NCBI GenBank assembly: GCA_042216055.1
Contig: JBDGUH010000001.1
Coordinates: forward strand, 2,213 to 66,212
DNA: 64,000 nucleotides
Origin: Haloarculaceae archaeon
GTDB taxonomy: Archaea > Halobacteriota > Halobacteria > Halobacteriales > Haloarculaceae
Direction of reading: 5' to 3'
In this document: positions 259 through 32,749 of the stretch, piece by piece
How positions within the stretch are numbered: the stretch's first letter is position 1
Layout of the letters: the number at the start of each line of letters is the position of its first letter
Translations under genes and position numbers: made by a program
The notes under the pieces: model-generated
Seen by the model: only the letters and a program-made list of their open reading frames with translations
Databases searched by the model: none
Told to the model about the DNA's origin: nothing

Positions 259-684
259 GTGGCAAGCACGTGTGAACCCGATATGGCCGTCGAGGACGCT
301 GACACCTCGCGAACGCGTGTTCAGACGTACGTGCCGGCATACCAGAAGGAAACCTGGCGCGAACACGCCGACGAACTGGACATGAGCCTGAGCGAATTCG
401 TCAGATCGATGGTACAGGCCGGGAGACAGGGGTTCGATGGCGAGACACGGGCGAATTCCGAGCAAGGCCGTTCGACCCCGTCTTCGAGCGACGACCCCCA
501 GGGGAAACCCCTCGAAGACCGGGTCATCGAGGTTCTCGACGACGGGGGATACTACGACTGGGACGAACTCGTGGCGGAACTCACCGACGGAATCGAAGAA
601 CGACTGGATTCGTCGCTCCGTGACCTCCAGGACGAAGGGCGCGTGACATACAGCGGCCGCAACGGGGGTTACACGCTCAAATGA
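259..684 (+). CDS. Ribbon-helix-helix (CopG-like) DNA-binding protein with C-terminal winged-helix-like domain
   Basis: N-terminal TRVQTYVPAYQKETWREHADELDMSLSEFVRSMVQ fits a beta-alpha-alpha RHH pattern. The C-terminal ~60 aa (VIEVLDDGGYYDWDELV...GRVTYSGRNGGYTL) looks wHTH-like. Its stop overlaps the integrase start (ATGA at 681-684). A TATA-like CTTTTTA lies at 228-234. The start could be GTG 259 or ATG 283. Confidence 0.6.
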   Translation: MASTCEPDMAVEDADTSRTRVQTYVPAYQKETWREHADELDMSLSEFVRSMVQAGRQGFDGETRANSEQGRSTPSSSDDPQGKPLEDRVIEVLDDGGYYDWDELVAELTDGIEERLDSSLRDLQDEGRVTYSGRNGGYTLK

Positions 685-1694
685 GTACCCGAGTCGATAC
701 GAACGCCCGCGAGGACCCGATCGCGTACTTCCTCGAGGACGTGACCTACCACGGGAAGACCGAACGCACGCGCCGGTACTACGAGCGCGTGTTGCGGGAC
801 TTCGAGGCGACGATCGACGTGCCCCTCTCCGAGGCGACCCATCGCCACTGTGTCGCCTACGTGCACGACCTCCGGCGGGACAAGAGCGAGAGCACCGTCG
901 CCACCTACGCGTCGTACCTCCACCGGTTTTACGCGTATATGACCCAGGTGGGTGCGTTCGGCGAGAACCCGATGACGCTGGTGATGGAGGAGATGGACGA
1001 GTCCGTCTCGACGGATCCGACGCGTCGTGACCTCTCGGTCCCCGAGATGCGCGAGTTCGTCGCGAGCCTGGGACATCCGCTCGAACGCGCCGTCGTCGTC
1101 ACACTCCTGAAAACGGGGCTGCGAGCCGGCGAGCTGTGTAATCTCGATCTCAGGGATCTCAATCTCGCAGGGGACGCCGTCAGCACGTCCCCACGGGGGG
1201 AGCTCTCGAACCGCGCCGACGCCCTGTTCGTCTCGGCGGCGCCCGCACGGGGAGAGACGTTCAACGGCGAGGAGCGGACGGCCTCGAACAAGCGCAAGCG
1301 CGACACGACAATCCCGGTCGACGACGAACTCGCCGATGTCCTGCGGTCCTGGCTCGCGATACGGCCGGACGCCCCCTCGCCGGCCGAGCCGTTGTTCGTC
1401 AGCACGCGCGACGGCTGGGGGCAGCGACTGACGCCCGACATGGTCCATCACCTCGTCGAACGACGGGCGCGGGAACGCGGCTGGTATCGCGACGGCGGCG
1501 GCCCGGGGGAGAACGTCACCCCCCACTACTTCCGGCACTTCTTTACGACGCATCTCCGCGATCGGACGGGTGACCGCGGGGTCGTGAAGTACCTCCGCGG
1601 GGACGTCGCCCAGGACGTCATCGACACGTACACCCACGAGTGGGGAAATCGGGTCCGAACCGTCTATCTCGAGAACATCTACGAACTGCGGTGA
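681..1694 (+). CDS. Tyrosine recombinase / phage-type integrase (XerC/D-like)
   Basis: Catalytic signature is present: LKTGLRAGELCNL (Arg), HYFRHFFTTHL (H-x-x-R) and a C-terminal DVIDTYTH (Tyr). The N-terminal SAM-like core-binding region (YYERVLRDFE...HCVAYVHDL) is also recognisable. Confidence 0.85.
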   Translation: MSTRVDTNAREDPIAYFLEDVTYHGKTERTRRYYERVLRDFEATIDVPLSEATHRHCVAYVHDLRRDKSESTVATYASYLHRFYAYMTQVGAFGENPMTLVMEEMDESVSTDPTRRDLSVPEMREFVASLGHPLERAVVVTLLKTGLRAGELCNLDLRDLNLAGDAVSTSPRGELSNRADALFVSAAPARGETFNGEERTASNKRKRDTTIPVDDELADVLRSWLAIRPDAPSPAEPLFVSTRDGWGQRLTPDMVHHLVERRARERGWYRDGGGPGENVTPHYFRHFFTTHLRDRTGDRGVVKYLRGDVAQDVIDTYTHEWGNRVRTVYLENIYELR

Positions 1695-1859: not shown

Positions 1860-3389
1860 GTGTTTTGATGGGTCGGCGAGAGTCCCCGATTACTCTGAAA
1901 ATCGAGATAAAACGAGTGCCGCGGCTACGGGAGGGCGAACCGGAGCGAAGAGTCAGTCACCCCAATCGAAGGAGGTACTCCTCCATACACCCGAGAAACT
2001 CGACGAACTCGATCACGGGATCGGCCGCCGGTTCGATTCCCACGTCCTTCTTCACGCGAAAGTCCACCAATTTCCACATCGAGTACGCCAACGCCGCGAA
2101 GCAGAAGTAGAACAGGTGCAGGCGGAACGACTTGGACTGCGTCGGCGCGAGGAACTTCTTGATCATCTCGTAGCTCTTCTCCTGCTGGCCCCGCCTACTG
2201 TATGGCTCCGTCCTCTCCACCGCCCGCCTCCTGTCGAGTCCGATCTCGTCTCGGACGTCCTTGTTCGTCGCGAACAGCACCGTCTTGTCCGGGTTCTGGA
2301 TGCTCGGCTTTGCGACGATGTTCGTCTTCGCATAGTCCCGTCCGACGCCTTCGATGGGGCCGAAGACGCCGTGATCTTGCTTGACCGCCACCTCGTTCTC
2401 CGTGGTGTCCAGCCAGCGTTTGAAGCGGACGTTCTTCGGGACGGACATCACGTAGTCAGACGGGGTCTCGTTCAGCGACCAGAGCCCGTCCGCCGAAAAG
2501 AAGCCGGCGTCCAGATACACGGTCTCGATCGACACCAGTTCCCGCGCCCGCCAGTACACTTCGCGGACGAGCGTGGCGTACGGGACACCCTTCGGGACGG
2601 GGCGCACAACGATCGGGATGCGGAAGTGCTGACCGACGATGTTCAGCGTGATGAACTTGTAGCACTTCGCGTCGCTGTCCTCGTCCTCCACGCCTTGGAC
2701 GAACTGTCCGGTCGCGTCATCGCCCAACTCCTCGAACATCTCACCGATGTCCTCGGCGGTCTCCTCTATCTTTTTGGGGTCGCCCGGTGCCTCGAGCGAC
2801 ACCATGTCGATGGCGGCCTCGACCGGGCGGTCGAACTCCACGTACTGCTTGATCTGCTCCATCAGCAGTTCGGAGATTTCGTCGTACATACGAACGGTCT
2901 CCGCCGGTTCGAGGTTCCTCGGGTAGAGGCGGAGCGTCTCGCCGACCGGTTTGCGATTCTCGTCCCCGGTCGGATCTGTGGCCAACCTGCAGGCAGCCCG
3001 CGCCGTCTTCCCGTCGGCACTCATCTCCGCCAGTACCTGCAGGAACGTCTCCATCGCGTACGTCGCGTTGTCCGCCCGGTCGAAGTCCCAGACCTCGGCC
3101 GCCATCTCGGCAGCCTCTTTCGCTCCCTCGTTGCGCTTGGACTTCTTGTGGCGGCTCTTGGTGGACGGTGAGGAGTCGCGCTTGTCGTCCGGCTCCAGCG
3201 AGTCCAGTCCCATCGGGTTGCCCTCGTCGTGGGCGATTTCGATGATCCGCTGGGCCTTGCGTTCGATCCAGTCGTTGAGATTCACGTCGATCTCGTCAAA
3301 GTCGAAGCGGTCGGTCTTCGCCCGAACTGAACCCTCTCGGCGATGCGTCCTCGGACGACCCACGAACCATCCCAGCAAGCACTGAAACC
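1860..3389 (-). mobile_element. ISH3-like (IS4 superfamily) insertion sequence; ends not resolved
   Basis: A single long transposase ORF fills the interval. It abuts a cas8b remnant on the right and an AT-richer spacer on the left. I could not identify clean terminal inverted repeats by eye, so the boundaries are approximate. Confidence 0.5.
1957..3378 (-). CDS. ISH3-family / IS4-type DDE transposase
   Basis: Motifs: [31 protein letters not shown] (DDE Asp region) and the C-terminal [17 protein letters not shown] (Y-x2-R-x3-E-x6-K type). The track start is a TTG; the true start may be internal. Confidence 0.8.
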
Positions 3390-3860
3390 ATGAGCGATAC
3401 GACCGACTTCAGCGACAGAGACGACCGACTCGCACAGTTCATCGACAACCACCCCGCCCTCGCCGAAGACGAGGAGCGCCGCGCTGCGTTCCTCCTCGGC
3501 GCTCTGGTCGGCCGCGTGGCCGCCTACCAGAGTCGCAACGGCATCTCCCGCACCGTCATCCGCCAGCATCCCATCGACGCAATGACGCGGCGGCGAATCT
3601 CCAGTACGCTCGGCAAGGTGCTGGACAAGAATGCACATTACTCGGACGACGACGAGAAGGCAGGACTACTGATGAACGACCGCTACCTCACGCGGCTGAA
3701 CGACATCGTAAACCGACGGCCGCCGGAGAAGTGGTCGCTCTCGACCGACGACCTCCGGATGCACTACGGCCTCGGCCTCACCTACGGGAAGAACGACGAT
3801 TCGCTCGACGACGCAGACGAGGACGAGGCGGCAGCAACCGAGAAACAGACTGACGACTGA
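3390..3860 (+). CDS. cas8b: Cas8b C-terminal remnant (Cas11b-like small-subunit region) of a type I-B system
   Basis: Lies immediately upstream of cas7-cas5-cas3, where cas8b belongs, but is only 156 aa. The helical [14 protein letters not shown]...[15 protein letters not shown]...[13 protein letters not shown] pattern resembles the Cas8b/Csh1 C-terminal region. It is followed by an acidic tail. The ORF begins 12 nt from the IS. Confidence 0.6.
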
Positions 3861-3891
3861 CCCCTCCGATCAACCAACCACACCACCAACG

Positions 3892-4926
3892 ATGACAGAG
3901 AACACCGACGATACGATTCAGAACCGCTCCGAAATCGCCTTCGTGATCGACGCCAAGGACACCAACCCCAACGGCGACCCGCTCACCGCCGACAACGAGC
4001 CGCGCATCGACCCCGTCACCGGGCAGTGCGTCGTCACCGACGTCCGACTCAAGCGGTACCTCCGCGACCAGCTCGTGGAGGACGGCCACGTCGTGCTGAT
4101 CGCCAACCCCAACGACGACGTGCTGACCCGCGAGGAGATGTACGACGCCGTCGAGGAGGAAATGGGCGTCAGCACCGAAGACGCGGAACCCGACGAACTC
4201 CTCGAGGCGTTCGTCGAGACCGCCGCCGACGTGCGGTACTTCGGGGCCACCATCTCGCTGGACACGGAGCTGGCAGACGACCTCCCCGACCAGTTCGAGG
4301 GGCCGGTGCAGTTCAACCACGGCCGCAGCTACCACGAGGTCGCCCGCAACACCGAGTCCAAGCAACTCGCCACCGTCATCGCCAACGAGGACGACAACGA
4401 GGAGGACGGCAAGAAGGATCAGGGCACGTTCGCCACGGACAACCGCATCAGCTACGGCGTCATCGGCTTCGGCGGCCGCATCAACGACAACGCCGCCGCG
4501 GACACTCGCCTCAGCGAGGAAGACGTCGAGCGGCTCGACACGCTCTGCTGGCGGGCGCTGAAGAACCAGACCGTCACCCGCTCGAAGGCCGGCCAGCAGC
4601 CCCGTCTCTACGTCCGCGTCGAGTACGAGCGCGACGGCTTCGAGATCGGACGGCTCAACGACCGCATCGGCGTGGCCAGCGACCTGCCCGAGGACGAGAT
4701 CCGGGGCACGGACGACTTCCACCTCGACGTCTCGGAACTCGTGACCGCGCTCGCCGACAACGAGGCCCGAATCGACACCGTCCACGTCACCGCCGACAGC
4801 GCGGTGGACTTCGCGCTCCCCGACGGCGAGACGGGCGACCGCGAGGCCTTCTACGCCGCCCTCGAGGACGCCCTCGGCGCCGAGGTGGTCGACGCCTACG
4901 ACGTGTACGAGCGGTACGCGAACTGA
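3892..4926 (+). CDS. cas7: Type I-B Cascade backbone subunit Cas7 (Csh2 type)
   Basis: N-terminal SEIAFVIDAKDTNPNGDPL...VVTDVRLKRYLRD is the classic Cas7/Csh2 signature. Position in the cas8b-cas7-cas5-cas3 order agrees. Confidence 0.9.
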   Translation: MTENTDDTIQNRSEIAFVIDAKDTNPNGDPLTADNEPRIDPVTGQCVVTDVRLKRYLRDQLVEDGHVVLIANPNDDVLTREEMYDAVEEEMGVSTEDAEPDELLEAFVETAADVRYFGATISLDTELADDLPDQFEGPVQFNHGRSYHEVARNTESKQLATVIANEDDNEEDGKKDQGTFATDNRISYGVIGFGGRINDNAAADTRLSEEDVERLDTLCWRALKNQTVTRSKAGQQPRLYVRVEYERDGFEIGRLNDRIGVASDLPEDEIRGTDDFHLDVSELVTALADNEARIDTVHVTADSAVDFALPDGETGDREAFYAALEDALGAEVVDAYDVYERYAN

Positions 4927-4950
4927 CATCGCCGTCCCATCTCTCCACAT

Positions 4951-5772
4951 ATGACGCAACAAGACCTCACCGACCACGCGTCCGATGGCGGCGACTCGTC
5001 GACCGCCCGGTACGTCCCCGACACCTGCATCGGGTTCGACGTGACCGCCGACTTCGCCCACTTCCGGAAGGTGGGCAACAACAGCGCCAAGCCCAGCTAT
5101 CGCGTCCCGCCGCGGACGACCGTCGCCGGCCTCCTTGCGGGTATCATGGGGATGCCGCGCGACAGCTACTACGACCTGTTCTCGCCATCTTCCTCCGCGG
5201 TCGCGGTCGTCCCGAAGGAGTTGCCCCACACGTACACGATGGGGATTACGACGGTCAACACGAAGGCCGACGACGCCATCCAGTACCTCCCACAGGAGCG
5301 TAGCTGGCACCACGGGGCGGAGATGCTGACCCCCGAGTCCTACGTGAAGTACGACCGCCAGCGCGACACCTACGAGATGCTTGTCGACCCCGTGTACCGC
5401 GTCTACGTCGCACTCGCCGACGAGGATGTCCACGACGAACTGCGGGAACGCCTCGAGGACTCGCGGTACCACTACTCGCCAGCACTCGGCCTCTCCGAGT
5501 GCATCGCGGACATCCGAGACGTGGACACCCACGCCGTCGAATCCACCACCACGGACGCCGTTGACTCCGCCGCGTACGACGACTCCGCGGTCGTTCCCAG
5601 ACCCGGCGTCACGGTCAAGCGCGAGCGGGCACCGCTCTACATGGAGGCGACCGACGGCGGACGACGGACGACCGCGTTCGGCAACATCACGTACGCAACC
5701 GGCGACGACCGCCTTCCTGTGGACGACTCCCGGGCGCACGCGGTCGGCGACCACGAAGTCGTCCTCTACTGA
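4951..5772 (+). CDS. cas5: Type I-B Cas5 (Cas5h type)
   Basis: FDVTADFAHFRKVGNNSAKPSYRVPPRTTVAGLLAGIMG matches the Cas5 N-terminal RAMP motif. Position between cas7 and cas3 agrees. Confidence 0.85.
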   Translation: MTQQDLTDHASDGGDSSTARYVPDTCIGFDVTADFAHFRKVGNNSAKPSYRVPPRTTVAGLLAGIMGMPRDSYYDLFSPSSSAVAVVPKELPHTYTMGITTVNTKADDAIQYLPQERSWHHGAEMLTPESYVKYDRQRDTYEMLVDPVYRVYVALADEDVHDELRERLEDSRYHYSPALGLSECIADIRDVDTHAVESTTTDAVDSAAYDDSAVVPRPGVTVKRERAPLYMEATDGGRRTTAFGNITYATGDDRLPVDDSRAHAVGDHEVVLY

Positions 5773-5782
5773 CACGCGAACC

Positions 5783-8371
5783 ATGACCTTCGAGCAGTAC
5801 ATCTCTCACCCAGCCAAGACCGACGACGGCGAGCCGACATTCCTCATCGGCGATGGGGGCCGGTTCGACGACGAGGGACACCTCCGGACGGTCGCCGACC
5901 GGATGGTCGAGGCCTGCCGCGGGCAGATGCTGGCCGACGGTACGCCGGCGGAGATAGTCGCGGAAGTGGTCGGTCTCACCCACGACTTCGCCAAGCTGAC
6001 CCGCTGGGCTCAGAAGCACCTCCGCGGCGAGCCCTTCCAGCACCCGGACGAGTACCGGTATCACGCCTTCCCGGGCGCCCTCGTCGCCCTCTACTGTCTA
6101 CTGGAGTGCCGCGACGAGGTCGGCGATTACGCGGCCGAGGTGGCCACGCTCGTCGTCGCGGGCCACCACGATACGCAGTCGCCACCGGAGCCGTCCAAGT
6201 TGGCGGAGAACTACGGACGAACCACCGCCGAAGTCCGAGAGACGTACGAGCGCATCAACGAGCAGTTCGACGACATCGGCGACGAGGTGCCGGATCGGGC
6301 CGACCGTGTCATCCGGGCGGCGACCGACGGTGCGGGGTCGTGGGATGACTTCCGCAAGTGGCACGACGACCGCGCGGAACCAATCGACGGCGCCCACGAC
6401 CATCTGGTGTACTTCGCCCGAATGGGAAAGAGAGACGCCGGAGTTGGCTACTACGGTGACGTGGTTCGACTCTGGACGGCACTCAAACTGGCCGACCAGA
6501 CCGCCGCGAGTGGGCTCGAAGACGACGACATCGGCGGGACGCTCCCCGACCGAAAGGCCCTCGACCAACACGTCGACGACCTCGACGAGGGAGAGGGCGT
6601 ACTGGCGGAACTCAACTGCCTCCGCGACCGGGCCCGAAAAGACGCGACGGAGAACGTCGAGGGCCTCGTCGAGTCCGACGACGTGGGCCTGATCACGCTT
6701 CCGACCGGATTCGGCAAGACGTACGCCGGGCTCTCTGCAGGCCTCCGAGCGGCCAACCTCAGCGACAGCAGACTGGTGTACGTCCTTCCCTACACGAGCA
6801 TTCTCGACCAGACCGCGAGCGAGATCCAGTCCGTCTTCGGCGTCAGTCCCTACAGCAAGGCGTTCACCCTCCACCACCACCTCTCGAACACCTACACCGG
6901 CCTCGGCGACCACTACACGGACGCCGACATCGGCCGCTCGCCGGGCGCTCTCCACGCGGAGTCGTGGCTGAGTGGGCTCACCCTTACCACCACCGTCCAG
7001 CTATTCGAGTCGCTCGCCGCCCCGACGGCGCGACAGGCGACCCGCGTGCCGTCTCTCCGCGAGTCCGTCGTCGTGATCGACGAGCCGCAGGCCATCCCCG
7101 AGGACTGGTGGCAGATCGTCCCCGCGCTCGTCGAGCTGCTCGTCGACACCTACGACGCCACCGTGATCCTGATGACGGCGACACAGCCCGGCCTCGTCAA
7201 GTACGGGTCGGACGAACTCACCACGCGAGAACTCACCGACGACACCGACCAGTACACGGACTTCCTCGCCGCCCATCCGAGGGTTACCTACCGACTGCAC
7301 GACACCGTCCGGACAGATCTGGGCGACGAGTACGCGACGCTCGACTATCCCACCGCTGGCGGTCGACTGTCCGAGGCGGCGGAAGACGGACGGGACGCCC
7401 TCGCCGTCTGCAACACGCGGGCGAGTGCCGAAGAACTCTACCGGTACGTCACGCCAATGGCGGGTGTGGGGGAGAAGGAACCGGTCGAACTCGGCCAACT
7501 CCTCCACGAGTACGTGGACGAGACCGGCGAGTTGCCGAGTGCCGTGGAACTTCGGCGACTCGCACTCGATGCCGTGGCCGAGCGGGACGCCGACACCGTC
7601 TACGCGTTCCTCTCGGGCGACGTGCGCCCCGACGACCGCCAACTGCTCATCGACGCCCTCTACGACGATGATGCGGGCGGCGAGGACGACCCCGCCCCGC
7701 TCCTCGACGGCGGCGAGTCGGTCGTCCTCGTCTCCACGAGCGTCGTCGAGGCCGGCGTCGACGTGAGCTTCGACACCGTGTTCCGCGACTACGCGCCCAT
7801 TCCCAACATCGTCCAGTCCGGCGGCCGGTGCAACCGTTCGTTCGGCGGCGAGACCGGCGACGTGGTCGTCTGGCGGCTTGCCGAGCCCGAGGACGGAAAC
7901 GCCATCCCCTCGCTGGTGATTCACGGCGGCGACGGCGGCGACGCCTTGCCGCTCCTCCGAGAGACCGGCCACGTCCTGCGTCATCACGCCGAAGACGGCT
8001 GCATCGACGAGTCGACGATGGTCTCCGACACCGTGGGCGAGTTCTACGAGTCGCTGTTCGACGGGGAGCTGGATCCCGGCGACGAGCGGCTCGCAGACGC
8101 CGTCTCTTCGGCGTCGATGTCCGAGTTGGAGGGCGAACACATGATCGAGGAGATCGAGGACTACGAGGACGTGGTCGCCTGCCTCACCGAGGAGGAGCGT
8201 GCCGACCTGCTCGGCGGCGATCTGGACGCGGGCGACGTCGGAAGGCATCCGGGGGCACAGGTCAACACCGACCCCGACGGGTGGGCAGAGGAAGTCACGG
8301 TCGGAAACTCGCGGTATCTGCTGGTGGACGCCCGAGATTCTTCCTACCACCCCGTGTTCGGCGTTCGATGA
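5783..8371 (+). CDS. cas3: Cas3 HD nuclease / SF2 helicase
   Basis: HD region: LTHDFAKLT, VVAGHHD. Helicase motif I: LPTGFGKTYAG. Motif II: VVVIDEPQ. Later SF2 motifs: LMTATQP, STSVVEAGVD, QSGGRCNR. I chose ATG 5783, in frame with the longer track ORF 5381..8371, because the upstream part overlaps cas5. Confidence 0.85.
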   Translation: MTFEQYISHPAKTDDGEPTFLIGDGGRFDDEGHLRTVADRMVEACRGQMLADGTPAEIVAEVVGLTHDFAKLTRWAQKHLRGEPFQHPDEYRYHAFPGALVALYCLLECRDEVGDYAAEVATLVVAGHHDTQSPPEPSKLAENYGRTTAEVRETYERINEQFDDIGDEVPDRADRVIRAATDGAGSWDDFRKWHDDRAEPIDGAHDHLVYFARMGKRDAGVGYYGDVVRLWTALKLADQTAASGLEDDDIGGTLPDRKALDQHVDDLDEGEGVLAELNCLRDRARKDATENVEGLVESDDVGLITLPTGFGKTYAGLSAGLRAANLSDSRLVYVLPYTSILDQTASEIQSVFGVSPYSKAFTLHHHLSNTYTGLGDHYTDADIGRSPGALHAESWLSGLTLTTTVQLFESLAAPTARQATRVPSLRESVVVIDEPQAIPEDWWQIVPALVELLVDTYDATVILMTATQPGLVKYGSDELTTRELTDDTDQYTDFLAAHPRVTYRLHDTVRTDLGDEYATLDYPTAGGRLSEAAEDGRDALAVCNTRASAEELYRYVTPMAGVGEKEPVELGQLLHEYVDETGELPSAVELRRLALDAVAERDADTVYAFLSGDVRPDDRQLLIDALYDDDAGGEDDPAPLLDGGESVVLVSTSVVEAGVDVSFDTVFRDYAPIPNIVQSGGRCNRSFGGETGDVVVWRLAEPEDGNAIPSLVIHGGDGGDALPLLRETGHVLRHHAEDGCIDESTMVSDTVGEFYESLFDGELDPGDERLADAVSSASMSELEGEHMIEEIEDYEDVVACLTEEERADLLGGDLDAGDVGRHPGAQVNTDPDGWAEEVTVGNSRYLLVDARDSSYHPVFGVR

Positions 8372-8381
8372 GCGGGTTATC

Positions 8382-9092
8382 TCAAATCCTCACCAGTAGC
8401 GGCAAATGATCGCTTGCGTCGATCCAGTCGTCGTACCCGCCGACCGTGACCTCTGTCTCCTGCTCGATTCGGTGGTCGGGTACGAACGCGTAGTCGATGT
8501 GGTAGGGCCGATCCTCCTTCTTGTGCATGTGGAACGTCGCCACCGCCTCCTCGCCGAACTCGTCACCACGCATCGCGTGGTACGCGCTGCGCAGTCCGTT
8601 CTCGTTCAACGCCGCTCGTACGTCGGCGAAGTCGCCGCAGAGCGGACTATTCGGTGACTCGTCCCACATCACGTTCCAATTGAAGTCGCCGGCGACGACC
8701 GTGTCCTCGTCGATTAGTTCGGGGTGGGTTTCGAGGGCGGTGTGGAGTTGTCCGATGTAGCGTTGCCGCGGGTTCTCCTCGTTGGTCATCGCCCACACGG
8801 CGAGAACGTCCACGGCATCGGTTTCGACGTGGAGGAAGTGGTCGGCCTCGGTGATTTCCGTAGTATTCGAGATGGTGATGTCAGCTCGTGTGAAGACACC
8901 GAGGCCCTTGTGCGGGTCGTCGCCAGTCCATCGCCAGTCCGTCCACGCCGACCAGTCGCCCTTCTCCGCGGGATGCTCGCACTCGGGCACGACCGCGATG
9001 TCTGGTTCGAGGTCAAGGAGTTCGTGCTGCTTTCGGCGGAACGCCTGATTGCAGTTCCACGTGGCCAATCGTATCGAAGCGGCCTCCACCAT
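8382..9092 (-). CDS. Endonuclease/exonuclease/phosphatase (EEP, DNase I-like) family protein
   Basis: EEP landmarks: LATWNCN near the N-terminus, VPECE, VVAGDFNW, and C-terminal IDASDHLPLLV. Convergent with cas3, with only 10 nt between the stops. Visibly lower GC than its neighbours. Confidence 0.75.
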   Translation of the reverse strand: MVEAASIRLATWNCNQAFRRKQHELLDLEPDIAVVPECEHPAEKGDWSAWTDWRWTGDDPHKGLGVFTRADITISNTTEITEADHFLHVETDAVDVLAVWAMTNEENPRQRYIGQLHTALETHPELIDEDTVVAGDFNWNVMWDESPNSPLCGDFADVRAALNENGLRSAYHAMRGDEFGEEAVATFHMHKKEDRPYHIDYAFVPDHRIEQETEVTVGGYDDWIDASDHLPLLVRI

Positions 9093-9133
9093 CTAAATGA
9101 ATTGTTCTCCCACAGCTTGGTTTTCAGCCTGCC

Positions 9134-9541
9134 CTATCTCATCTCTGGTAGCTGTGTTCGCATGCCGTTGAGGTACTCCGACTCGTCTGACGGAGGCCAA
9201 TCCGCCGCCTTCGAGAAGAGCTTGTCTGCCATCTCATCAATCTCTTCCAAGATGTCGTCGTTCGGTTCTCCTGACTCATTTTTACGATAGACGTAGTTGA
9301 GCTGGACGAGTTCGCACAGCTGAAACTCAGAGACGTATAGCGAGACGACTCGCCAGTCGCTATACCGAATCTGTTTCAGGTGGTCGTAGCCCGTGTAGTC
9401 CTTCTCGAAAAGCGTTCTAACATCTTCGACCCGCTCCTTCTCCTCCCGGAGGTGATCAATAAGATTCTGTGCGTCGCTCGGGTCGTACTGCTTGGATAAC
9501 TTGTTCAGAAACCCGTCAGAAATGACGTAGCAAATCCGCAT
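9134..9541 (-). CDS. RelE/ParE-superfamily-like toxin candidate with acidic C-terminal extension
   Basis: The pattern ICYVISDGFLNKLSK...(helices)...KQIRYSDWRVVSLYV...LVQLNYVYRKNE resembles the RelE/ParE beta-alpha-alpha-beta-beta-beta core (compare xRxRxGDYRxIYxx...HR). Markedly AT-rich. A small acidic ORF lies 15 nt upstream. Confidence 0.45.
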   Translation of the reverse strand: MRICYVISDGFLNKLSKQYDPSDAQNLIDHLREEKERVEDVRTLFEKDYTGYDHLKQIRYSDWRVVSLYVSEFQLCELVQLNYVYRKNESGEPNDDILEEIDEMADKLFSKAADWPPSDESEYLNGMRTQLPEMR

Positions 9542-9556
9542 TCGACCGTCCAGAGG

Positions 9557-9718
9557 TTACTCCGACAGGCGGTCGTCCGCGTCGTCAAGGGTGTGGAAGT
9601 CTCCGTTCTTGAGTTCTTCAGGGGTGACAACCCAGTCTTCCCCGTCGTACTCATCGGCGTCAAACTCACCCGCCTCGTCGTCCCCCTCGGCATCCGACGA
9701 CCGCGTGGTTTTGCTCAT
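9557..9718 (-). CDS. Small acidic protein (53 aa), antitoxin candidate; below the ORF-track length cut-off
   Basis: Hand translation from ATG 9718: MSKTTRSSDAEGDDEAGEFDADEYDGEDWVVTPEELKNGDFHTLDDADDRLSE, stop TAA at 9557-9559. A palindromic TATA-like ATATATAT at 9741-9750 is centred about 27 nt upstream of the ATG, which fits a leaderless haloarchaeal mRNA. Confidence 0.5.
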   Translation of the reverse strand: MSKTTRSSDAEGDDEAGEFDADEYDGEDWVVTPEELKNGDFHTLDDADDRLSE

Positions 9719-9740
9719 ATCTACCATTCGTGGCCGCGGT

Positions 9741-9750
9741 CATATATATC
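9741..9750 (-). promoter_or_regulatory. TATA-box-like element for the minus-strand acidic-ORF / RelE-like / EEP cassette
   Basis: CATATATATC is centred about 27 nt from ATG 9718. Because it is palindromic it could also fire toward the CRISPR array. Confidence 0.4.
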
Positions 9751-9933
9751 CTTGCCAGCGGTTCACCAGTAGCGTCTGGGCACGATGCTGATGCCCGCTT
9801 CACCTACTAGGTCTAGTGGTTTGGCATCTCTTGAGATGCTGTAGACGCTGTCGATCCCGTGGGTGTGAGGGGTATTGGAGGTCGACCGCGTCGAAGCCCT
9901 CGAGCCAGAGGCGGTGATGCCGTAATGGCGACG

Positions 9934-10159
9934 GTTAAAGACGAACCCTCGTGGGGTCGAAGCAGGACTACGTGGCGAACAACAGGATCGACGTGACCGT
10001 TACAGACGAACCCTCGTGGGGTCGAAGCCAACACCGGGTTGATCAACCTCGGCGCGATGAGGTAGTTACAGACGAACCCTCGTGGGGTCGAAGCGCGATG
10101 CTGCCGGAGGTCGATCTCGACGAACCGGCGTTTCAGATGAACCCTTACCGAGTCGGGGG
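9934..10159 (+). CRISPR. Type I-B CRISPR mini-array: 3 intact 30-nt repeats, 3 spacers, 1 degenerate terminal repeat
   Basis: Repeats at 9934-9963 (GTTAAAGACGAACCCTCGTGGGGTCGAAGC), 9999-10028 and 10065-10094 (GTTACAGACGAACCCTCGTGGGGTCGAAGC). Degenerate repeat at 10130-10159 (GTTTCAGATGAACCCTTACCGAGTCGGGGG, about 20/30 matches). Spacers are 35, 36 and 35 nt. The repeat resembles the haloarchaeal I-B repeat ending in ...GAAGC, which implies plus-strand transcription. Confidence 0.9.
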
Positions 10160-10433
10160 TTCAGAATCACGACAGGTTCTGCGACTTCGAATAGCCACGC
10201 CACCGTATATGTCAAACTGCCGAGTTATCGTGGTGAGGCGAAGAGCGACTGCTGCATAATCTGTGAAATTCGGGACTGGGGCGCGGTCGATCTCGACCTG
10301 CGAATCCGTCGTCACTCTAGCGAGGCTCACAGTGTCGCGGGTCTTCACGGCCGTTGCGGTGCCCGGCGCAAACGAGGCCTGCTCTCTCAGCGGGCTGGAA
10401 ATACTCGGACTAGTCTCGCAGTCGGCCCGACGA

Positions 10434-11735
10434 TCAGTACGGCCAATCGCCGGTGATCCGCATGCCCTCGGCGAGCCCCTCATCCTCTAGCTGGGCGGCG
10501 ATCTCTTCGGGATCGCGGTGCGGGACCGTCACGTCGTCGCCCGCGAGGTGGACGACGAGTTCGGTCAGCAGGATCGCCTGCTCGCGCAGCGTCCGGGACT
10601 CCAGTTTGTCGAGCGTGTCGGCGCGGGTATGCCCCCATCCGCGTCCCGTCTCGCCCGTCTCGCTCGAGACGTGATAGCCCGGCACCCCCCACTGGACGTA
10701 CGGCCAGTGGTCGCTGTGGGGTCCGAGCGTGGGACTCGTCTCGATCGGGTGGCCGAGCCGTCCGGCGACCGTCTCGGCGGCCGCTGCGAGTTCCGGAAAG
10801 CCGTGGGTGGTCAACGAGAGGGTCCGACCGCGGACGGCGCCGTCGTTGTTGACGACGGCCACCACGTCGTCGTGATCGCGGCGGGCGGCGTCGTGGTTCG
10901 AGCCCACGAGACCGACCTCCTCGGCGCCGTACGCCAGGAAGTGAACCCGGGTGTCGAGTTCGTCCTCGCGGGCGGCGAGCGCGCGGGCCATCTCGACGAC
11001 CAGGGCGGTGCCGGCGCCGTTGTCGCCGGCGCCCTCCGCGATGTCGTGGGCGTCGACGTGACTGGTCACGAGGATTTCCGCCTCGGTGTCCGGGCCGAGA
11101 TCGGCGTGGACGTTCTGGCTGGTCGCGTCGTGGACCTCGGCGTCGACGGAGACGGAGATCTCCTCGCCCGACCACCGCCGGGCGAGTCGCGCGCCGACCT
11201 CCTTCGAGACGCCGACGGCGGGGATCTCCCCGATCGGCGCCCCCTCGGTCCCAACGCTGCCCGTCGGGGCGAGACAGCCCTCGACGTGGTTGCGGAAGAC
11301 GAACCCGGCGGCGCCCGCCTCGACGGCGTGGTAGTACTTCTCCCGGCGGTGGAGGAAGCGATCGTACCAGTCGGGGACGTCGCTGGCGGCCATCACGATC
11401 GCCCCCTCCAGGTCGGCCTCGAAGTCCCGCGGAAGCCCGTAGCCAACGTCGACGAGTTCGCCCGTGGCTTCGCCGGCGGGACTGCGCGGGAGCGCGATAC
11501 ACTCCTGGGTCGTGTCGCCGGCCGCGATGCTGGCGTCGCCCCGCGTCCAGCCCTGAATGTCGAAGGGCTCGAGGCGGGCGTCGCGCGCCCCCGCCTCCGC
11601 GAGGGCCGCCCGGGTCGCCTCCGCCGCCCGTCGCTCGCCCTCGCTGCCGGCCATGCGGTCGCCGATGTCGACCAGCGTCTCGAGGTGACGCCAGCCGGTG
11701 TCGCTCGTGAACGTGTCGCCGATCCAGTCTGCCAT
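10434..11735 (-). CDS. M28-family metallopeptidase (aminopeptidase)
   Basis: Motifs: HLETLVDIGDRMAGSEGERRAAE, VTSHVDAHDI.EGAGDNGAG, FLAYGAEEVGLVGS, SDHWPY. These are typical M28 zinc ligand blocks. Start taken at ATG 11735. Confidence 0.8.
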   Translation of the reverse strand: MADWIGDTFTSDTGWRHLETLVDIGDRMAGSEGERRAAEATRAALAEAGARDARLEPFDIQGWTRGDASIAAGDTTQECIALPRSPAGEATGELVDVGYGLPRDFEADLEGAIVMAASDVPDWYDRFLHRREKYYHAVEAGAAGFVFRNHVEGCLAPTGSVGTEGAPIGEIPAVGVSKEVGARLARRWSGEEISVSVDAEVHDATSQNVHADLGPDTEAEILVTSHVDAHDIAEGAGDNGAGTALVVEMARALAAREDELDTRVHFLAYGAEEVGLVGSNHDAARRDHDDVVAVVNNDGAVRGRTLSLTTHGFPELAAAAETVAGRLGHPIETSPTLGPHSDHWPYVQWGVPGYHVSSETGETGRGWGHTRADTLDKLESRTLREQAILLTELVVHLAGDDVTVPHRDPEEIAAQLEDEGLAEGMRITGDWPY

Positions 11736-11910: not shown

Positions 11911-12483
11911 ATGAACAGGGACGTCTCAGTGCGGGAGGTGATGAACGAGGAGTTCGTCGGGGCGAGTGAATCTGACGGACTCCTCGAAACGGTCGACCTG
12001 TGGCTCCAGGAGGGTGCCGCGGCGGTCGTGGTGCTGCGTGGCAACGAGGCCGTCGGCGTCCTCACAGAGCGCGACGTGCTGGGGTTGCTCGTCGCGGGGC
12101 CGGACCCGGAGCGGGCGACGGTCGGGGACGCCATGACGGCGTCGGTCCCGACCATCGGCCCCGACAGGACGCTCTCGGCGGCCCGCGACCGGATGGCTTC
12201 GCAGGCACTCGACTGGCTGGTCGTCACGGCCGGCGACGGACCGCTGGGCGTCGTCACCGAACACGACATCCTCACGGCCGCGGCGCTGGGGACCGAGACG
12301 GCCAGCGAGGGCACCCGAGAGCGGGCAGTCGCCGCCGGGGCCGCGATGACCGAGGACGCCGGCGAGGCGTCCGCGACCGAGGGGTTCGAGGATCAGGGGA
12401 TCTGTGAGGTCTGTGGCTCGCTGTCCCGAGACCTGAGCGCGTTCAACGGGCAGTTGCTGTGTGCCGACTGCCGGGACGTCTGA
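11911..12483 (+). CDS. CBS-domain pair protein with C-terminal zinc ribbon
   Basis: Two CBS-like units (VREVMNEEFV...GVLTERDVL; VGDAMTASVPTI...GVVTEHDIL). C-terminal CEVCG...CADC motif. Confidence 0.7.
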   Translation: MNRDVSVREVMNEEFVGASESDGLLETVDLWLQEGAAAVVVLRGNEAVGVLTERDVLGLLVAGPDPERATVGDAMTASVPTIGPDRTLSAARDRMASQALDWLVVTAGDGPLGVVTEHDILTAAALGTETASEGTRERAVAAGAAMTEDAGEASATEGFEDQGICEVCGSLSRDLSAFNGQLLCADCRDV

Positions 12484-31231: not shown

Positions 31232-32749
31232 ATGCGATACAGCACGAACTACGACGTCGGCGAGCGGAAGCGAGAGGACGGCATCAACGAGGACAGCATC
31301 GCGCTGGCGGTGTTCGAGCAGGGCCACCGCGAGGGCTACCGGGGGGAGGACCGACCGCTCGGTGACCGCCCGCCGGACGCCGCCGTGGCGAACGACGACG
31401 CCCAGGCGGGCGAGAGCGCGACGGCGGAGCCCGCAGCGAACGACGACCGGACACGTGACCGGGACGAGAAATCGCCGGACGACGGCGAGGTGCGCGCCGA
31501 CGAAGCGGTGCCCGCCGAGCAGGGATGGCACGCCGAGGACAGGTCGGACGACGAAGACGTGGACGGGGTGGACGTCGAAGACGAGGACGAAAGGGACGCC
31601 GAAGCCGAGGACGGGGTAGACGCCGAAGCCGAGGACGGTGCGGACGCTGAAGACGTGGGCGGAGCGAACGCCAAAGACGAGAACGGATCGGACGCTGAAG
31701 ACGTGGGCGGAGCGAACGCCAAAGACGAGAACGGAGCGGACGCCGAAGACGAGAACGGAGCGGACGCCGGGGATGAGAACGAGGTGGCGGCCGACACCGT
31801 CGACGAGAATGCCCGGACAGCGCCGCTGAACCGTTCCGGGGCCGCGTTCGCCCTGGCGGACGGCGCGGGCGGACACGAGGCGGGGGACGCCGCCTCGTAT
31901 ATCGCGTCTGCCGTCGCCGTCGAGGAACTGGCGTCCGTGGCCGTGCGAGCCACGCGGACCGACCCCCAAGGGTTCGACCTGCCGGAGGGCGTCCCGGCCC
32001 CCGAACGGTCGACCGACGAGGAGATGCAGGGGGCCGTCGAGCGCGCGGTCGTCGCCGCCCACCGCCGCGTCCTCGAGTACGCCGCGAGCGAGGGAACCCC
32101 CGCGTACACGACGATCGTCGCGGGCGTCGTCGCGGACGGTCGCCTCCACTACGGGTGGGTCGGCGACAGCCGGGCCTACGTCGTCAACCGCGAGCGGGGC
32201 GATCTGGCGCTGCTGACCAAAGACCACGCCGTCGTCGAGGAACTCGCCGACGCCGGCGAGGTCGACGAGGTCGAGGCACACGTCCACCCGCGGGGCAACG
32301 AGATCACGCGGGCGGTCGGCGGTGCCGGCGACGCCGATCCCGAGACGGCGGCGGTCCCGGTCGAGACGGCGTCCGTGCCGCTGTACGCCGAGGACGTGCT
32401 GGTGGTCACGAGCGACGGCCTGATCGACGCCCAGACCGACGCGCCGTCGCTGTACGAGGAGTACCGCGAAGCGGGCCGCGACGAGGCGGCCGCCGAGACC
32501 GTCCTCGAGAAGGTCGTCACGGACGCGCAGGTACGTGACCTCGTGCTCTCGGCGTCGACGCTCGACGAACTGGTCGACGACGCGGTCGAACTGGCGAACG
32601 ACCGCGGCGGGAAGGACAACGTCTCGATCCTGGCGCTGTCCGCGCCGTCCGCGCCACCCACCCCCGCCGACGGCGGTCTCCCGACCAGGGCCGCCGACCC
32701 CGACGTCCCCCTCGAGGAACGCGAGACGGTGCTCGTTCCCGAGAAGTGA
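31232..32749 (+). CDS. PP2C-family Ser/Thr phosphatase with a large acidic repeat insertion
   Basis: NEDSIALAVF, ALADGAGGHEAGDAAS, VGDSRAYVV, VVTSDGL and GGKDNVSILAL are PP2C motifs. A ~190-aa D/E/A/G-rich segment separates motifs 1 and 2. ATG lies 1 nt after the kinase stop. Confidence 0.85.
   Translation: MRYSTNYDVGERKREDGINEDSIALAVFEQGHREGYRGEDRPLGDRPPDAAVANDDAQAGESATAEPAANDDRTRDRDEKSPDDGEVRADEAVPAEQGWHAEDRSDDEDVDGVDVEDEDERDAEAEDGVDAEAEDGADAEDVGGANAKDENGSDAEDVGGANAKDENGADAEDENGADAGDENEVAADTVDENARTAPLNRSGAAFALADGAGGHEAGDAASYIASAVAVEELASVAVRATRTDPQGFDLPEGVPAPERSTDEEMQGAVERAVVAAHRRVLEYAASEGTPAYTTIVAGVVADGRLHYGWVGDSRAYVVNRERGDLALLTKDHAVVEELADAGEVDEVEAHVHPRGNEITRAVGGAGDADPETAAVPVETASVPLYAEDVLVVTSDGLIDAQTDAPSLYEEYREAGRDEAAAETVLEKVVTDAQVRDLVLSASTLDELVDDAVELANDRGGKDNVSILALSAPSAPPTPADGGLPTRAADPDVPLEERETVLVPEK
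31643..31738 (+). repeat. Near-perfect 2 x 48-bp tandem repeat inside the PP2C acidic insert
   Basis: GACGCTGAAGACGTGGGCGGAGCGAACGCCAAAGACGAGAACGGA(T/G)CG occurs twice in a row (31643-31690 and 31691-31738). Related 24-bp units follow. Confidence 0.9.

Follow-up and report, generated by a model that had tools for sequence, protein, structure and literature searches.

In complete haloarchaeal loci of CRISPR-Cas type I-B (CRISPR, short palindromic repeats that are clustered and regularly interspaced), the adaptation genes cas4-cas1-cas2 lie between cas3 and the leader of the repeat array. Adaptation-deficient type I-B modules were described in haloarchaeal proviruses and on a plasmid of Halobacterium GSL-19, and it was proposed that spacer acquisition is 'outsourced' in such modules (Naki & Gophna 2025, PMC12596717). 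Here, a stretch of 64,000 nucleotides from a Haloarculaceae archaeon (GenBank assembly GCA_042216055.1, contig JBDGUH010000001.1, positions 2,213 to 66,212), in the following called the window, was analysed. It carries cas7, cas5 and cas3 on the plus strand and, directly after them and in the place of cas4-cas1-cas2, three genes on the minus strand, just as the original prediction had placed them. One codes for an endonuclease/exonuclease/phosphatase (EEP) nuclease and the two others for proteins of 135 and 53 aa; they are followed by a leader and an array of three repeats. The EEP gene is probably a standing component of the module lineage, arranged tail-to-tail with cas3, and a mobile, putative type II toxin-antitoxin (TA) unit with the two small genes was inserted beside it.

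Cas3, Cas7 and Cas5 of the window are 88.8%, 94.8% and 86.5% identical to those of the GSL-19 plasmid pGSL19_54.9, and because of this similarity the window can be assigned to the published adaptation-deficient lineage. As in the described modules, which move between genera, the locus is effector-only and array-flanked and lacks cas1, cas2 and cas4, and an integrase gene is found at the edge of its island. It differs in that this copy is degraded, with no cas6, a truncated cas8b and only three repeats. No adaptation gene was detected from the cas8b remnant through cas7, cas5, cas3, the EEP gene, the TA unit and the leader to the array, a scan for the locus only that did not extend to cas1 in the rest of the 64-kb window and the genome. 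In the cas-linked EEP loci (including L003, L007, L008, L057, L063 and L074), too, cas1, cas2 and cas4 were absent from the stretch that runs from cas3 to the array and from the far side of cas6. The region from 3336 to 9070 is collinear with L007, L008, L021 and L059 at 88–92% nucleotide identity, and since none of these contains cas4-cas1-cas2, the junction of cas3 and EEP is inherited and not the product of a local deletion. Cas3 itself is 88–90% identical to that of the same four loci and of the GSL-19 plasmid. It had been suggested from the window that a fragment of a mobile element deleted the adaptation genes. This was not upheld, as the same cas3/EEP junction without cas4-cas1-cas2 occurs in at least ten loci of several genera, among them the published module. 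The absence of the three genes is a property of the whole module lineage.

Close relatives of the EEP protein with 60–89% identity (at least 70% except for L068) were obtained from protein-database look-ups, GTDB genomes, JGI metagenomes and PLSDB. They represent 17 non-redundant loci, which are related modules and not independent events. The EEP gene is convergent with cas3 in ten of them, namely the window, L003, L004, L007 (Natrinema hispanicum CDM_6), L008, L021, L057, L058/59, L063 and L074. Three further loci have no cas genes, but CRISPR repeats (L009 from Haloferax elongans and L061/62) or only the boundary motif of the module (L010) beside EEP, while L060, L064, L065/66 and L067 bear no trace of CRISPR. 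In the window, the end of cas3 is separated from the EEP stop codon by 10 nt.

The linkage extends over two very different effector cassettes. Within the group of L003, L057 and L063, Cas3, Cas5 and Cas7 are only 31–41% identical to those of the window, whereas the EEP protein is 87–89% identical. Cas6 of this group, encoded on the opposite flank from EEP, is ~95% identical to Cas6 of the window-type loci. The effector interior was evidently swapped inside a conserved frame with EEP on one flank and cas6 on the other. Still, the EEP gene is not kept wherever the system is intact. It is 5'-truncated in L021 with its intact cas genes, and on pGSL19_54.9 (L074, positions 11934–12237) only fragments of it are left beside an intact cas3. 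From these comparisons, the EEP gene often accompanies the adaptation-less I-B module as a passenger, but the module can dispense with it.

Some of the loci showed further details around the EEP gene. The EEP remnant of L074 is unannotated in the database record, and the neighbouring array abuts its fragments. In L009, three repeats (9735–9894) are found directly upstream of EEP and a DUF6176 gene and one degenerate repeat (11246–11275) downstream, with no cas genes near; the two genes seem to sit inside an array that has broken up. L065, L066 and L067 contain a tRNA-like 3' end (GGTTCAAATCC...) ~100–150 nt upstream of the EEP start, which suggests that an element has integrated there at a tRNA gene and that EEP lies at its edge.

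The EEP protein was recognised by Pfam PF03372 with 28.4 bits (cut-off 24.5) over the full domain (profile positions 1–225 of 225), which confirms the earlier assignment as a DNase I-like nuclease. N13, E39, D136, N138, D228 and H229 form a conserved catalytic set. When the family profile was compared with the PDB, LINE-1 endonuclease was the best match (E 2e-8), followed by ExoIII. The protein can be regarded as a DNA nuclease of the APE/ExoIII/LINE-1-EN-like, metal-dependent kind, and its active site is intact. However, the matches to the APE1/ExoIII/LINE-1 endonuclease branch are weak (E ~1e-8), and the EEP protein of the window falls into a distinct family of ~230 aa, marked by the N-terminus WNCNQAFR and the motif GDFNWN. 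This family yielded 1,090 matches, mostly from haloarchaea, with a patchy distribution over Halobacteria, Methanosarcina, Bacillota and Asgard archaea. Relatives with up to 55% identity (Halorussus, Methanosarcina, Bacillota) are located away from cas genes, with cupin and HEAT-repeat genes as neighbours. Our best guess is that the EEP protein is a stand-alone nuclease for DNA repair or degradation that is carried as cargo and is not a required Cas component.

The 633-nt unit with the two small genes (9132–9764) is 80–82% identical on the nucleotide level to L001 7639–8271 and L002 4965–5588, with sharp ends and unrelated flanks, and neither EEP nor any cas gene is near it in these two loci. 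In L002, where the toxin gene bears a frameshift, it is placed between two 109-nt direct repeats (4790–4898 and 5610–5718; 92% identical) by which a DUF5518 gene is duplicated at its 3' end. Truncated toxin copies (P0006 and P0128) were found as well. Unlike in L002, no direct repeat or target-site duplication was evident at the insertion in the window. L001 has, at a distance of ~100 nt from the unit, 45 nt left over from the same CRISPR-module trailer that the window contains. As the same sharp 633-nt boundaries recur in three unrelated contexts, together with direct repeats and decayed or truncated copies, the unit can be considered independently mobile and a local addition to the module of the window. 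Compared with L057, the unit and short flanks replace ~85 nt between leader and EEP. The idea that the three genes form one fixed cassette had to be abandoned: the pair was found without EEP in all five other contexts (L001, L002, L070, L072 and L073), and EEP is found beside cas3 without the pair in L003, L004, L007, L008, L057–L059 and L063.

The 135-aa protein had been proposed to be RelE/ParE-like, and this proposal is supported by structure prediction and not by sequence similarity. An AlphaFold2 (AF2) model was computed from an alignment of 11 sequences, the divergent members of which came from an exhaustive profile search and from a third round of searching for homologues. It reached a mean predicted local distance difference test (pLDDT) score of 88.5 and a predicted TM-score (pTM) of 0.81. 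The model comprises a strand (residues 3–7), two helices (9–18 and 21–37), three strands (55–60, 63–70 and 77–86) and two further helices (95–112 and 117–126), that is, a β-α-α-β-β-β core with a C-terminal two-helix extension (approx. residues 95–126). In a Foldseek search against the PDB, the top ~40 matches were all toxins of the RelE, HigB2, YafQ, ParE or YoeB type, with probabilities of up to 1.00 and target-normalised TM-scores of 0.5–0.82. RelE1 from M. tuberculosis (9g12_B) was matched with E 1.9e-4, and the target-normalised TM-score of 0.82 was obtained with RelE from T. thermophilus (2khe). Further matches included HigB2, RelE from M. jannaschii, YafQ, ParE2, YoeB and the RelE domain of Cami1. 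The few matches in BFVD were of the same kind, including a 'cytotoxic translational repressor'.

The family of the 135-aa protein is very small. A word-indexed search of 5.8e9 proteins gave six matches, and six were also obtained when 1.84e9 representatives were searched exhaustively with a HMMER profile; once divergent members were included by the profile search, the family counted 12 members among the 5.8e9 proteins, all from hypersaline samples. Y49, Q57, R64, L81, Y85, K87 and P93 are invariant, and Y49, Q57, R64, Y85 and K87 are predicted to be on or beside the sheet. R64 (in the motif DWR, strand 3) as well as Y85 and K87 (after strand 4) are presumably located where RelE-type RNases have their catalytic residues. 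According to the model, the protein represents a previously unclassified RelE/ParE-fold family. It shares with the superfamily the predicted core that superposes on the structures of RelE, HigB2, YafQ and ParE, as well as the small gene upstream of the toxin gene, the mobility of the unit and the frequent decay of the toxin gene. It differs from known families in the lack of profile-level similarity and in a conserved 40-residue two-helix extension (EPN..DIL..ID...DWPP.EES.YL).

The 53-aa protein is hyperacidic with 20 D+E, 4 K+R and a pI of 4.05, and it is 85–87% identical in L001 and L002. An alternative in-frame ATG at 9727 would extend it to 56 aa. It had no match in Pfam, NCBIfam and PADLOC or in the profile search of the PDB. 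A small open reading frame (ORF) of 47–63 aa precedes each full-length relative of the 135-aa protein that was examined (window, L001, L002, L070/71, L072 and L073) at a distance of 14–99 nt. In the loci with a checked sequence (all but L073, the ORF of which has 47 aa), it is acidic and has the motif VVTPEEL-x-GDF-x-TLDD, in the divergent L070 and L072 also. The gene pair is thereby conserved across family members that are 25–87% identical, and the earlier view of the two genes as a type II TA-like pair gains support from these upstream ORFs. The small size of the partner (47–63 aa), its hyperacidic composition and the lack of a ribbon-helix-helix (RHH), helix-turn-helix (HTH) or AbrB domain differ from type II TA systems. 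It is more like antitoxins that lack a DNA-binding domain, for example PaaA2, a small antitoxin that neutralises ParE2.

The ATG at 9718 is preceded at a distance of ~28 nt by a TATA-like box (GATATATAT), and L001 and L002 share the conserved block GGCAAGGATATATATG. A TATA box this far upstream fits the promoter spacing of leaderless mRNAs in haloarchaea. Because of this distance, the transcript is likely to be leaderless and to start at the 53-aa ORF. The TA unit with its own promoter would have been inserted into a spacer of ~100 nt between the CRISPR leader and the start of EEP. The homology of the window's EEP gene to other loci starts at 9070, where its usual ATG is an ATA, and an in-frame ATG 21 nt upstream (9092) serves instead. 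The insertion may have removed the native start in this way, and EEP is now probably read from the upstream ATG on the TA transcript. The acidic 53-aa peptide would bind and neutralise the RelE-like protein as PaaA2 does with ParE2. If the unit were lost or shut off, the freed toxin would arrest growth, most likely by ribosome-dependent cleavage of mRNA, and carriers would therefore be addicted to the stretch of DNA that bears the TA unit.

CreTA RNA toxin-antitoxin modules reportedly safeguard the type I-B cas genes of haloarchaea; they are said to be Cascade-dependent RNA pairs between cas6 and cas8. The pair in the window may likewise be an addiction element inside a haloarchaeal I-B locus and could stabilise it. 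In contrast to CreTA, its two partners are proteins, and it adjoins the leader, is independently mobile and failed to prevent the loss of cas6 and cas8b.

Several points weigh against a mobile TA unit that was merely inserted beside a resident nuclease gene. The 135-aa protein had no sequence match in Pfam (E ≤ 10), NCBIfam and PADLOC (E ≤ 1) or in a profile search of the PDB (E ≤ 10). Its fold assignment rests on a single AF2 model from 11 sequences, and the pLDDT was 40 with an alignment of five sequences of the family. The 53-aa protein has no DNA-binding domain, which leaves the usual autoregulation of type II TA systems unexplained. Toxicity, neutralisation and co-transcription, like the target of the toxin and any role of EEP, are inferred. 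Finally, three different co-oriented pairs were found 9–41 nt from the EEP start, and one of them moves together with EEP as a triad; functional coupling would fit this as well as an insertion hot spot.

In L007, L057, L058/59 and L063, the slot between leader and EEP contains no gene. In L003, it contains a DUF7342 gene with a winged helix-turn-helix (wHTH) and a TumE-like 162-aa gene; the same toxin-like gene is present in L069. The label is kept at 'TumE-like' since the 162-aa protein is 33% identical to the 148-aa protein of L005 over 60 residues only, and the 'TumE' label of the latter comes from precomputed Pfam matches that our own hmmscan at E ≤ 0.1 did not reproduce. L008, L060 and L064 have a DUF7437 wHTH gene and a 187-aa gene, the product of which in L008 is called PIN-like on the basis of 21% identity (E 3e-7) to a protein of L063 with a sub-threshold PIN match. 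The RelE-like pair occupies the slot in the window only; the identical arrangement in L075 stems from the same strain (100% identical).

These pairs are an argument for the TA-plus-nuclease module that the original prediction had considered, in which all three genes would act as one tripartite system for defence or addiction. The first two, a regulator or antitoxin and a toxin-like sensor, would be exchangeable, and EEP would be the constant effector. The three unrelated pairs are co-oriented with EEP and tightly upstream of it (at 41, 9 and 18 nt in the window, L003 and L008, respectively), the triad of wHTH, 187-aa and EEP gene forms a unit of ~2.03 kb common to L008, L060 and L064 with differing flanks, and the TumE-like gene with EEP recurs in L003 and L069. 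Moreover, the usual ATG of EEP is lost in the window, and the gene relies there on the sequence upstream of it. The tripartite module is nevertheless unlikely, as the RelE-like pair does without EEP in every other context, and EEP does without an upstream gene in L007, L057, L058/59, L063, L009, L010, L061 and L065. None of the three proteins was matched by PADLOC models, and a homologous wHTH/PIN-like pair in L063, with an array on either side, is encoded on the opposite strand and at some distance from EEP. Together with DUF7342/TumE pairs 1.4–7 kb from EEP in L057, L061/62 and L009, the L063 pair points to a zone in which TA-like pairs simply accumulate. An even bolder extension would take EEP and an exchangeable sensor/regulator pair as a CRISPR-coupled effector arm that replaces the adaptation genes, either as backup output for DNA degradation or abortive infection or as end-processing nuclease for spacers acquired in trans; we regard this as a long shot.

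EEP could also be a genuine CRISPR-Cas accessory of the adaptation-less modules that processes DNA ends made by Cas3 or prespacers for adaptation in trans, which would explain its position in the adaptation slot. Its place beside cas3 in ten of 17 loci and the CRISPR remnants in three more agree with this, as do its retention with both effector cassettes, a ratio of non-synonymous to synonymous substitutions (dN/dS) similar to that of cas3 and the active site of DNA-nuclease type. We consider this role improbable, however: in two loci with intact cas genes, the gene is fragmentary (GSL-19 plasmid) or 5'-truncated (L021), it occurs without any cas gene in L009, L010, L060, L064 and L065–67, and its relatives with up to 55% identity are unlinked to cas genes. 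Its transcription is convergent to the cas operon, and as cas6 is conserved between the effector variants, too, the shared EEP may only reflect the conserved frame. By far the least credible explanation is a local event, in which a mobile-element fragment with the three genes deleted cas4-cas1-cas2 in this genome. The region is mosaic and of low GC, with an insertion sequence (IS) and an integrase nearby, but the collinearity of 3336–9070 with four loci that all lack cas4-cas1-cas2 implies that the arrangement predates this genome. Local deletion was rejected on the grounds of this inherited junction; only the TA unit is local.

Adaptation-less, horizontally mobile I-B modules of haloarchaea were first described in 2025, and the main text of that paper left their non-cas content unexamined: it does not mention an EEP nuclease, TA pairs or toxins (PMC12596717). 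The main text of a 2018 preprint with a survey of CRISPR-linked genes likewise names neither a phosphatase nor a toxin. The window is a modest extension of the module type described in 2025. The frame of the module can now be defined as boundary motif, trailer, array, leader, variable TA slot and EEP, followed by cas3 through cas6. It is accompanied across genera and with two very different effector cassettes by an APE/L1-EN-like nuclease, and its leader-proximal slot gathers different TA-like pairs, one of which belongs to a previously unclassified RelE/ParE-fold family with a hyperacidic mini-partner. If EEP acted with the CRISPR machinery, this would be a new accessory function. If not, the locus would still illustrate clearly how addiction modules and cargo genes gather in mobile CRISPR islands.

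The features of the locus are compiled in Table 1. Coordinates, strand and gaps of the three ORFs (41 nt between the EEP and the 135-aa gene, 15 nt between the 135-aa and the 53-aa gene) were all as originally given; the leader and the array right after them were absent from that account.

Table 1. Annotated features of the CRISPR locus and its surroundings (positions refer to the window).
Feature	Position	Strand	Basis
DUF5805 gene and tyrosine integrase gene	259–1694	+	Pfam scan
ISH3-family transposase gene	1957–3378	-	NCBIfam NF033541
cas8b C-terminal remnant	3390–3860	+	NCBIfam Csh1, C-terminal part only
cas7	3892–4926	+	Pfam/NCBIfam scans
cas5	4951–5772	+	Pfam/NCBIfam scans
cas3 (HD + helicase), convergent with EEP gene	5801–8371	+	Pfam and NCBIfam matches
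EEP nuclease gene, 236 aa	8382–9092	-	Pfam PF03372
Mobile TA unit, 633 nt (promoter and both small genes)	9132–9764	-	Nucleotide comparison with L001 and L002
135-aa RelE/ParE-fold protein, putative toxin	9134–9541	-	AF2 model and Foldseek
53-aa hyperacidic protein, putative antitoxin	9557–9718	-	ORF call
TATA-like box GATATATAT	9742–9750	-	Read off the sequence
CRISPR leader remnant	~9815–9933	+	Homologous to leader-side array flanks in L003, L008, L057 and L063
Mini CRISPR array of 3 repeats (GTTACAGACGAACCCTCGTGGGGTCGAAGC) with 2 spacers	9934–10094	+	Rfam RF01337, CRISPR-DR24
Conserved trailer and module boundary, ending at motif CCAGTCCCGAATTTCACAGATTATGCA (10253–10279)	10095–10279	-	Homology breakpoint

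The window has a GC content of 0.69 and is of haloarchaeal character. The GC content is 0.67 in the cas genes and 0.70–0.72 in the chromosome to the right. The three genes had been described as an AT-rich cassette, which holds mainly for the two small genes (0.515 for the 135-aa and 0.605 for the 53-aa gene, 0.543 for the 633-nt unit); EEP has 0.616. All three genes are under purifying selection with dN/dS values of 0.15–0.28 for EEP, 0.04 for the 135-aa gene and 0.07–0.16 for the 53-aa gene.

The copy of the module in the window is decaying, with no cas6, a cut cas8b and three repeats. Homology of cas8b to intact loci begins at 3336, and only its C-terminal third is retained beside a transposase gene of the ISH3 family, which takes up the place expected for cas6 and for the 5' part of cas8b. 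The ISH3 assignment by NF033541 (E 7.5e-21) is below the family cut-off; the GC pattern over the codon positions fits a coding gene on the minus strand. Because cas6 is absent and cas8b truncated, the I-B effector module of the window would be non-functional on its own. The DUF5805 and integrase genes mark the left edge of an island of lower GC that runs off the start of the window and probably continues past it. No viral hallmark genes were found for the window. Relatives of the EEP protein, the 135-aa protein, the repeat core and the boundary motif were not found among IMG/VR viral contigs, and the two spacers had no exact match there. As these scans remained without match, the label 'provirus' cannot be transferred to the window.

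At the other end, the homology with L057, L008, L021, L001 and L010 starts sharply at the motif CCAGTCCCGAATTTCACAGATTATGCA, which is found at 10253–10279 (minus strand) in the window, 7504–7527 in L001, 5493–5516 in L008, 9788–9811 in L021, 9506–9529 in L057 and ~9850 in L010. The mobile CRISPR module seems to end at this motif, from which loci with no other relationship begin to be homologous. Neither a tRNA nor a second copy of CCAGTCCCGAATTTCACAGATTATGCA was found in the window when they were sought to define att sites.

The arrays of related loci differ in their condition. That of L003 (18–1297) has 19 repeats, many of them degenerate (65–100% identity to the reference copy), as expected if it is no longer renewed. 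The arrays of L008 with 44 repeats and L063 with 15 perfect repeats look well maintained. Apart from the locus, a 24-nt tandem repeat with 9.8 copies and 77% matches, probably coding and unrelated to the finding, is located at 31534–31769 of the window.

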